A stretch of 64,000 nucleotides of DNA from Octopus vulgaris (Eukaryota): positions 66,030,001 through 66,094,000 of the forward strand of contig OX597820.1 in the NCBI GenBank assembly GCA_951406725.2, read 5' to 3'. Positions 7,097 through 32,654 of this stretch are shown one piece after another. Each line of letters starts with the position of its first letter. The stretch's first letter is position 1. Under the pieces are notes generated by a model. That model saw only the letters and a program-made list of their open reading frames with translations, made no database searches and was not told the DNA's origin. The translations under genes were made by a program, and so were the position numbers.

Positions 7097-7886
7097 GGCG
7101 GTGAGCTGGCAGAAACGTTAGCACGCCAGGCGAAATGCTTAGCAGTATTTCGTCTGTGTTACGTTGTGAGTTCAAATTCCGCCGAGGTCGACTTTACCTT
7201 TCATCCTTTCGGGGTCGATAAATTAAGTACCAGTTACGCACTGGGGTCGATGTAATCGACTTAATACCTATGTCTGTCCTTGTTTGTCCTCTCTGTGTTT
7301 AGCCCCTTGTGGGTAATAAAGAAATAGGTATTTCGTCTGCCGTTACGTTCTGAGTTCAAATTAGCCGAGGCTGACTTTGCCTTTCATCCTTTCGGGGTCG
7401 ATAAATTAAGTACCAGTTACGCACTGGGGTCGATGTAATCGATTTAATCCGTTTGTCTGTCCTTGTTTGTCTCCTCTGTGTTTAGCCCTTTGTGGGTAGT
7501 AAAGAAATAGGTATTTCGTCTGCCGCTATGTCCTGAGTTCAAATTCCGCCGAATCGATTTTGCCTTTCATCATTTCGGGGTCGATAAAAATTAAGTACCT
7601 GTTACGCACTGGAGTCGATGTAATCGACTTAATCCCTTTGTCTGTCCTTGTTTGTCCCCTCTATGTTTAGCCCCTTGTGGGCAATAGAGAAATAAGAAAC
7701 GTTAGCTTGCCGGGCGAAATACTAAGCGGTATTTCGTCTGTCTTTACGTTCTGAGTTCAAATTCCGCCGAGGTCGACTTTGCCTTTCGGAGTCGATAAAT
7801 TAAATACCAGTTGCGTACTGGGGTTGATCTAATCGACTGGCTCCCTCCTCCAAAATTTCGGGCCTTGTGCCTAGAGTAGAAAAGAA
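7097..7886 (+). mobile_element. SINE family B, four stacked units
   Basis: A-box-like TGGCAGAAACG and B-box-like GAGTTCAAATTCC; cctttcatcctttcggggtcgataaattaagtacc (Meta-domain-like); junctions at ~7327, 7510, 7695. Confidence 0.9.
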
Positions 7887-20639: not shown

Positions 20640-20841
20640 GAAACAGGTAAAAGATAGATATATATATATATCTTTTACCTGTTTCAGTCATGAGACTGCG
20701 ATCACGCTGAGGTACTGACTTGAATTTTTAGTCGAATGAATCGACCCAGTACTAGCTGTCACGCAGTGAGACTGAACCCGGAGTAATGTGGTTGGGAAGC
20801 AAGCTTCTTACCACACAAGCACTCTTGCGCGTATTATTTAT

Positions 20842-21357: not shown

Positions 21358-21413
<56 letters not shown>

Positions 21414-21434
21414 TATATATGTATATATATATTT

Positions 21435-21927
21435 TTTTTTGCTTCCCTGATATTGATTAATTAATGATTTTTTAACTAATTCTGAAATTAAATCAGCAGT
21501 TTATATTTGCTGCTGATAAGTTGGCGCGGTGACGGTAGATTTTGAAAATATAGAATATATATTCTCAAGGCGTCGATGCTGTCGCCTCGTGGATATATAT
21601 TTCCCTGGCTTCTTTGCTGACGAGACAGGCCAGTGGCAAATAGATTTAATCTAATTTAATTAAATCGGTTTGCCAAGATGTATGTCGAAACTATGCATAG
21701 TCCAAAGATGATAAGGGTAAATGTTTTTATTTTCCTTTGGTTTCTGAATTACAACTACTTAGCGGTTTGAGTTTAGGTGCTCTTTCTAGTGGGTCGAATG
21801 GCCTATCAAGGCCATTCCTTAATATTGTTAAATGTACACTATATAGTCTGTTGACTATTTTTTCTTTCTCACTGGACCGCTGGTGGCGAAAGAATTTCTC
21901 TTGAATTTTTTGCTTCCCTGATATTGA

Positions 21928-21932
<5 letters not shown>
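21435..21932 (+). mobile_element. retrozyme-like/Penelope-like non-coding element with terminal direct repeat, inserted in (TA)n
   Basis: ttttttgcttccctgatattgattaat at 21435-21461 and 21906-21932 (period 471 nt); (TA)n on both sides; contains intact HHR. Confidence 0.8.
21611..21708 (+). ncRNA. intact type I hammerhead ribozyme
   Basis: Helix I tctttg/caaaga; core CTGACGA 21617-21623; helix II gaca/tgtc plus tggcaaat/gtttgcca and gatttaat/attaaatc; GAAA 21687-21690; palindromic helix III ACTATGCATAGT; GTC triplet, predicted cut after 21702. Confidence 0.9.
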
Positions 21933-21987
<55 letters not shown>

Positions 21988-21991
21988 CTCT

Positions 21992-22390
21992 CTCTTTTTA
22001 CTTGTTTCAGTCATTTGACTGCGGGCCATGCTGGAGCACCGCCTTTAGTCGAGCAAATCGACCCCGGGACTTATTCTTTGTAAGCCCAGTACTTATTCTA
22101 TCGGTCTCTTTTGCCGAACCACTAAGTGACGGGGACGTAAACACACCAGCATCGGTTGTCAAGCAATGCTAGGGGGACAAACACAGACACACAAACACAT
22201 ACACACACATATATATACATATATACGACAGGCTTCTTTTCAGTTTCCGTCTACCAAATCCACTCAAAAGGCATTGGTCGGCCCGGGGTTATAGCAGAAG
22301 ACACTTTCCCAAGGTGCCACGCAGTGGGACTGAACCCTGAACCATGTGGCTGGTTAGCAAGCTACTTACCACACAGCCACTCCTGCGCCT
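21992..22390 (-). mobile_element. SINE family A, full length, young
   Basis: Near-identical to 24371-24788 and 46688-47091. Confidence 0.95.
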
Positions 22391-22408
22391 ATATATATAT
22401 ATATATAC

Positions 22409-32236: not shown

Positions 32237-32654
32237 TATTCCTTTATTGCCCACAAGGGGCTAAACATAGAGGGGACAAACAAGGACAGACAAAGGGACT
32301 AAGTCGACTACATCAACCCCTGTGCGTAACTGGTACTAATTTAATCGACCCCGAAAGGATGAAAGGCAAAGTCGACCTCGGCGGAATTTGAACTCAGAAC
32401 GTAACGGCAGAAGAAAAATACCTATTTCTTTACTACCCTCGAGGGGCTAAACACAGAGTGGACAAACAAGGACAGACGAACGGATTAAGTCGATTATATC
32501 GACCCCAGTGCGTAACTTGTACTTATTTAATCGACCCCCGAAAGGATGAAAGGCAAAGTCGACCTCGGCGGAATTTGAACTCAGAACGTAACGGCAGACG
32601 AAATACCGTTAAGCATTTTGCCCGGCGTGCTAATGACTCTGCCAGCTCGCCGCC
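32237..32654 (-). mobile_element. SINE family B, two stacked units
   Basis: Junction aaagaaata|ggtattt (reverse complement) at ~32416-32431. Confidence 0.9.

Follow-up and report, generated by a model that had tools for sequence, protein, structure and literature searches.

A dispersed hammerhead retrozyme family in Octopus vulgaris with the insertion anatomy of Penelope-like elements

RESULTS

An aged retrozyme copy in a TA microsatellite

The window, a 64-kb stretch of Octopus vulgaris DNA, contains at 21435-21932 an ordinary, aged, single-ribozyme derivative of a larger repeat family. This is a real and well-conserved ORF-less family of non-LTR retrozymes, a class that has itself already been published. 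Every retrozyme feature that can be read from DNA is found in it, and on the same grounds it appears to stand apart from the autonomous Penelope elements. Taken as a whole, the insert is very probably a 5'-truncated copy of an ORF-less 471-nt retrozyme, placed in a TA microsatellite by Penelope-type copying. That a non-LTR retrozyme is mobilised here by Penelope-like machinery is a reading we hold with high confidence. The insert and its surroundings are as follows.

21361..21432, unstranded: host (TA)n target tract, left
21435..21932, + strand: single-armed insertion of the 471-nt retrozyme, 1.06 units long and truncated at its 5' end within a T run
21435..21461, + strand: unit positions 1-27, first pass; rare T at 21444
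21906..21932, + strand: unit positions 1-27, second pass, up to fixed end B; rare T at 21915
21834..21932, + strand: ~99-nt 'tail' between ends A and B
21931..21987, unstranded: host (TA)n target tract, right

A sequence-only reading had described a non-coding insert between two (TA)n tracts with a 27-nt direct repeat at its ends, and both descriptions proved accurate. Nucleotides 21435-21461 equal 21906-21932 (27/27 nt) at a period of exactly 471 nt, and the repeat extends on neither side. Read as a circle, the 471-nt unit has a longest Met-ORF of 30 codons; it is low in GC (34%). Folding z-scores against shuffles are –6.5 for the unit and –3.6 for the ribozyme region.

The same reading called the insert a terminally redundant unit. 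Terminal redundancy does not characterise the element, whose 3' end alone is fixed; the 498-nt length falls within the 45–895 nt spread of arm lengths in the family. In the window copy, a single arm of 498 nt ends at B, and the redundancy of 27 nt is incidental. A host target-site duplication, which the reading had raised as another source of the repeat, was rejected, since in other copies the 27-mer runs on into element sequence. Retrozymes are termed 'active' when they have two ribozymes (Li et al. 2026, 10.64898/2026.07.22.740005). The window copy, a solo derivative, has a single one, and it therefore cannot excise or release a monomer by itself.

RNA reads joining 21905 to 21435, suggested earlier as a sign of a circle, would not be diagnostic of one, because this junction is ordinary genomic sequence in tandem copies. 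No record listed as RNA was found to hold the 471-nt unit; contigs assembled from runs whose RNA origin is a guess cover it. One of these begins at the predicted cut site of a young variant (see below), which is given no weight here, as assembled contigs cannot show RNA starts.

Two related SINE-like repeats flank the locus, at 20673-20834 and 21996-22392 of the window. They are 81–89% alike in pieces, and we take them to resemble octopus SINEs. Short tandem arrays lie at 7145-7694 and 32237-32603, with periods of 183 and 186 nt; these are probably tandem SINE-like units.

Structure and conservation of the ribozyme

The insert carries one hammerhead, with the following parts.

21603..21717, + strand: type I hammerhead, predicted cut after C21702
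21603-06/21714-17, + strand: distal helix I
21611-16/21703-08, + strand: helix I, 6 bp
21617-23, + strand: core CUGACGA
21687-90, + strand: core GAAA
21624-27/21683-86, + strand: helix II base
21634..21675, + strand: long AU-rich distal hairpin extending helix II
21607..21631, + strand: predicted pseudoknot, helix I bulge 21607-10 with helix II internal loop 21628-31
21690..21701, + strand: palindromic helix III; perfect 12-nt palindrome

Each part of the hammerhead claimed beforehand was recovered: complete type I topology, a 6-bp helix I, the CTGACGA/GAAA core, an extended helix II and the 12-nt palindrome. A search with this pattern gave a single match in the window and none in 100 shuffles; as it was derived from this family, the count indicates only that the match is not due to chance. 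Rfam searches detected no hammerhead here, whether at the gathering score or at E ≤ 10; the long insertion in helix II is the probable reason. Weak Rfam matches to miRNA and snoRNA models were dismissed as chance.

Conservation was assessed in 64 aligned copies. In the ribozyme helices, 97.1% of cells are paired, compared with 30–46% in slid controls. Changes on both sides are seen in 9 of the 29 ribozyme pairs, a count drawn from related sequences and thus not one of independent events. All four base pairs of the helix II base covary, and helix I switches from G-C to A-U. In the helix III palindrome, pair types are U-A in 52, G-C in 9 and A-U in 2 of the 64. The pseudoknot comprises four pairs, with 96.5% of cells paired and a change of C-G to U-A in 5/64 sequences. 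These compensatory changes, as read from the alignment, support both the helices and the loop I/loop II pseudoknot. Base-paired contacts between stem I and stem II are common, occurring in ~40% of hammerheads (PMC3088659).

The predicted catalytic fold lies above the minimum free energy by 2.1 kcal/mol for the fragment and 2.9 kcal/mol for the circle, with the pseudoknot not counted. As a monomer, helix III has 4 bp and a tetraloop; as a dimer it becomes a 12-bp duplex of –15.9 kcal/mol predicted. Judging from this modelling, the palindromes of two ribozymes could pair with each other, and dimeric pairing of this kind is known for metazoan type I motifs (PMC4209133). Several retrozyme variants (e.g. 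L020, L030 and L063) have C in place of U at core position 4 and keep all helices.

A dispersed, ORF-less family

We searched the 2.8-Gb assembly for the family. The insert gave 2353 candidate matches, the best 40 of which were scored and are, self excluded, 84–97% identical. Exact 22-nt ribozyme motifs (3' halves) number 139 in the genome, full hammerhead core patterns 161 and the downstream hairpin motif 385, with 0 in the control in each case. The family is dispersed across at least 28 contigs. From 58 distinct ribozyme-to-ribozyme monomers we obtained 10 clusters of 458–486 nt, 69–88% identical to the window type. In all ten variant representatives, the sense strand folds better than the antisense.

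Thus the other copies and tandem arrays whose existence the sequence-only reading made a check of its proposal are present: the family is dispersed and ORF-less, and 98 pairs of motifs are spaced by one unit. Membership of a retrozyme-type family was likewise borne out, as copies traced upstream of the ribozyme wrap into their own unit and not into an ORF. Locus L012, of the window's subfamily, has two intact cores and, from its sequence, could release a monomer. We found no publication on a retrozyme of octopus or other cephalopods, nor on the two-armed A+B anatomy described below in retrozymes; the supplementary lists of PMC7229834 and 10.64898/2026.07.22.740005 may include such families.

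Fixed 3' ends and ragged 5' ends

Ends were mapped for 107 arms, representing 90 loci and 68 insertions of a family only partly sampled in this way. The 3' ends fall at two sites, with 49 at site A, 45 at site B (21932 in the window) and 13 elsewhere; one A row in this count is a duplicate cut by a locus edge. The sites are ~99 nt apart, and each lies ~15 nt 3' of a hairpin whose pairing is 93–96% conserved, with modest covariation in hairpin A. Their positions in the window copy are given here.

21829..21845, + strand: fixed 3' end A of other copies, the putative RT start site; edge blurred by TA-like sequence
21796..21817, + strand: hairpin 5' of fixed end A; 3/9 pairs changed on both sides
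21882..21917, + strand: hairpin 5' of fixed end B; pairing in 96% of cells, with changes confined to one side of a pair

A TA tract follows 43/49 A ends and 43/45 B ends (86/94 together) versus 16/94 5' ends. The 5' starts are ragged, occupying all ten bins of the unit. Of the arms, 34/107 are longer than one unit. Head-to-head pairs with both ends fixed comprise 26 A+B and 1 B+B, after removal of two duplicate rows. In 8 further head-to-head rows, one end lies elsewhere than A or B.

Random circular permutation of copies, the expectation for random priming on a circle, is therefore rejected: the check proposed earlier found none among the 107 arms, 94 of which end at the fixed sites A or B. 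The same ends bear on whether the repeat is a satellite or other DNA-level repeat spread by recombination, with the 27-mer a target-site or slippage duplication. Arrays do exist and may be reshaped after insertion. Yet the copies are dispersed over the contigs counted above, their 3' ends are fixed and their 5' ends ragged, in other copies the 27-mer runs on into the element, and the ribozyme structure is conserved. Within the sampled loci this explanation is refuted, and we give it practically no credence.

One template sequence per insertion

Both 27-mers of the window copy carry the rare T, found at 3 sites genome-wide versus 94 sites with A. The third of these, L162, is an arm shorter than one unit that has none of the window's other variants. 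The rare T in both 27-mers argues that a single template sequence was copied twice. We extended this comparison to 31 insertions of the subfamily. Two passes had a rare variant in common at 10/1847 site pairs within the same arm and at 21/4448 between opposite arms, ~30 times the chance expectation of ~0.3 and ~0.8, respectively. Rare variants confined to a single pass were found in 66 same-arm and 146 opposite-arm comparisons; these indicate decay after insertion. The shared variants fit repeated reading of one unit, and equally fit a homogeneous tandem source absent from the assembly.

The latter possibility belongs to a broader alternative, in which the same family and a Penelope-type enzyme are at work and transcripts of tandem loci, linear multimers that stay uncut, serve as template, circles being absent or a by-product. 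Tandem sources exist, as shown by the unit-spaced motif pairs. In the longest array (see below), units counted from the outer ends of the arms match slightly above chance (p ~0.02), and in vitro it is uncleaved RNA that serves as the main substrate of a Penelope protein (PMC11167929). On the other side, the sampled loci of the window's subfamily include no arm longer than ~1.7 units. Repeated 5' truncation would also be expected to shorten the sources, yet arms of more than one unit persist in about ten variants. Moreover, the rare T is present in both window passes, and its only other site, L162, is sub-unit and lacks the window's other variants, so that the assembly contains no tandem source for this T.

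The longest array counts in favor of a linear multimer. A young 474-nt variant (L121-L160), 74% identical to the window type, forms arrays of 3–7 units. Its largest representative, L151/L152 (G000:C28:279.3-292.4 kb), is one insertion of ~13 kb with two head-to-head arms of ~14 units each, which end at B and A in (TA)n and are 99% identical. Within this 26-unit array, certain variants are found repeatedly, in several units of each arm, and one shows an inner/outer gradient in both. Such recurrence argues against a single pure monomer circle, barring later homogenisation or template switching. Weighing these observations, we somewhat favor a circular over a linear multimeric template; an uncut linear multimer is a serious possibility, albeit a less probable one.

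The young variant has an A.A mismatch at the helix II base, next to the core; it keeps the pseudoknot and shows further compensatory changes. With a within-variant identity of 98.5%, it is apparently the youngest variant and has the longest arrays. Arrays of at least 3 units account for 8 of 25 multi-ribozyme A.A insertions and 1 of 33 others (Fisher p 0.004), in a tally made by hand in which the A.A pair was left unchecked in 3 of the 25 and which concerns one lineage, with the mismatch confounded with youth. The idea that arrays of 3 or more units are exclusive to the A.A variant was rejected, as L161, with a normal pair, has an interrupted arm of ~3.2 units.

Penelope-like elements in the same genome

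The genome contains two young families of intact elements encoding RT and GIY-YIG domains, with proteins of 781 and 775 aa and many copies. A CxxxxCxxC linker precedes the endonuclease, which suggests the Neptune/Nematis type as defined in PMC8557442. These autonomous families terminate in (TA)n at two sites, whose spacing is 38 nt in one family (12/13 anchors) and 32 nt in the other (exactly so in 28/32). From this insertion anatomy, we infer a candidate helper for the retrozyme. The retrozyme and Penelope-like insertions often occupy the same or adjacent TA-rich tracts (L061, L052, L013, L158 and L160), consistent with a shared target.

The 781-aa ORF was seen at L111:445-4087, with an apparent separate upstream ORF of ~350 codons and many near-identical copies; motif scans of the L111 3' repeat found no canonical hammerhead. 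The second family (L116:4300-4350 and L195-L224) is very young and has a 32-nt tail, with 111/111 scored matches 99–100% identical. By eye, it has a minimal hammerhead-like motif with C at core position 4.

We considered whether the copy could itself be the detached pseudo-LTR of an autonomous Penelope-like element, the alternative put forward in the sequence-only reading. The insertion anatomy is identical to that of Penelope elements, Xenopus retrozymes resemble pseudo-LTRs, making remote descent plausible (10.64898/2026.07.22.740005), and the family was sampled in part (90 loci end-mapped of the 2353 candidates). Nevertheless, arms that cross the unit boundary re-enter the unit with no ORF, and head-to-tail arrays consist of pure units, up to 14 in number. 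In tblastn over 165 family loci, Penelope ORF pieces were found at 7 (5 distinct places). The 3 of these places that were read hold no unit–ORF fusion, only separate insertions in the same TA-rich tract. The unit shows no sequence similarity to 29 Penelope (GIY-YIG/ORF) loci, apart from one 80-nt fragment in L093; these 29, out of 27305 candidates overall, are dominated by two of the genome's families, and the search for a parent element covered the top-scoring genomic candidates. A detached pseudo-LTR is thus quite improbable. An autonomous Penelope-like element was rejected, the loci viewed showing no RT and GIY-YIG ORF between pseudo-LTRs. The earlier choice between retrozyme and Penelope partial tandem therefore stands in its first half, that of a retrozyme, and fails as a choice, because the family is ORF-less yet has Penelope anatomy.

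DISCUSSION

A possible route of mobilisation

The preferred reading, a retrozyme moved by Penelope-like machinery, would run as follows. Multi-unit copies may be transcribed, and two hammerheads, aided by the pseudoknot and perhaps dimeric through the palindromic helix III, would cut out a monomer that is then ligated to a circle. A Penelope RT/GIY-YIG protein would nick (TA)n and use the two DNA ends as primers just 3' of the hairpins, one at site A and the other at site B. Synthesis of each arm would proceed backwards round the unit and stop after a variable distance. The copy in the window would then be one B-primed arm that went 27 nt beyond one full round, and a dead end for monomer release.

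Several steps have precedent. Metazoan non-LTR retrozymes yield circles in coral, mussel and axolotl, and Penelope elements have been proposed as their helpers (PMC7229834; 10.64898/2026.07.22.740005). In vitro, a Penelope protein cuts and extends both strands, with two internal RNA start sites that define the tail (PMC11167929). Penelope insertions are typified by partial tandems, an inverted copy truncated at its 5' end, a tail and TA targeting (PMC8557442). Other points weigh against the scheme: of nine Xenopus retrozyme dimers, only one was cleaved in vitro (10.64898/2026.07.22.740005), ribozyme cleavage was dispensable for Penelope insertion in vitro (PMC11167929), the tail of the octopus family is longer than usual, and the Penelope loci sampled include no autonomous element homologous to its unit.

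A fuller version of this scheme is rolling-circle, twin-primed retrotransposition, in which a Penelope dimer, using both ends of a cut TA tract, would start synthesis at two sites marked by hairpins on a single small RNA circle, and in which insert length would be capped by the strength of the ribozyme, as the array lengths of the A.A variant might suggest. We put this forward tentatively. If true, it would provide direct genomic evidence for animal retrozyme movement and for the tandem and inverted inserts of Penelope. Penelope mobilisation of animal retrozymes is a published hypothesis, based on co-occurrence and pseudo-LTR similarity. To these the octopus family adds mechanistic traits: it shares its target with Penelope elements, its two arms use two fixed start sites in complementary fashion, and each insertion reflects a single template. 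With an RNA that is short, start sites that are mapped and candidate enzymes that are intact in the same genome, experiments in vitro could address whether the template is a circle or a multimer and what the hammerhead contributes.

Comparison with known systems

Plant LTR retrozymes carry type III hammerheads in true LTRs, with PBS and PPT and a 4-bp target-site duplication. Assignment of the octopus family to these was rejected on its type I topology, the lack of a fixed 5' end and the lack of an LTR pair.

Metazoan non-LTR retrozymes are ORF-less repeats with type I hammerheads (Cervera and de la Pena 2020, PMC7229834; Li, Clavereau and Pollet 2026, 10.64898/2026.07.22.740005). In this comparison the octopus family is known from sequence, with cleavage and circles predicted. 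Shared features are an ORF-less, low-GC, highly self-paired unit with one type I hammerhead, occurrence as monomers, dimers and multimers, and coexistence with Penelope-like elements (PMC7229834). The octopus unit is longer, at 458–486 nt versus ~170–400 nt in the invertebrate retrozymes of PMC7229834. It has a long helix II and a Watson–Crick loop I/II pseudoknot instead of the usual loop contacts. Its copies are mostly dispersed two-armed (TA)n inserts with two fixed ends, an arrangement absent from the retrozyme descriptions compared (PMC7229834; 10.64898/2026.07.22.740005).

With EN+ Penelope-like elements, the family shares partial tandems, an inverted 5'-truncated arm, a tail and TA/AT-rich targets (PMC8557442; PMC11167929), as well as a type I hammerhead with palindromic helix III (Cervera and de la Pena 2014, PMC4209133). 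The tail of ~99 nt exceeds the usual 30–40 nt (Craig et al. 2021, PMC8557442; Frangieh et al. 2024, PMC11167929). The octopus family has no ORF and a full canonical hammerhead, whereas the hammerheads of EN+ Penelope-like elements are minimal (PMC4209133), and its unit has no sequence likeness to the autonomous Penelope families sampled in the octopus genome. Chlamys elements such as MRC1 resemble it in being non-autonomous and of Penelope type, with pseudo-LTRs and head-to-tail multimers (PMC8557442). As described there, however, MRC1-type elements are similar to their autonomous partners in the 3' end and have no canonical hammerheads; on sampled data, the octopus family is the opposite in both respects.

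Finally, pseudoknot-stabilised hammerheads have a base-paired stem I/II contact and repeat-type ribozymes a palindromic stem III, both as here (Perreault et al. 2011, PMC3088659). The octopus pseudoknot differs in joining two internal loops, and the ribozyme that contains it is of type I and repeat-type, its helix II being very long.
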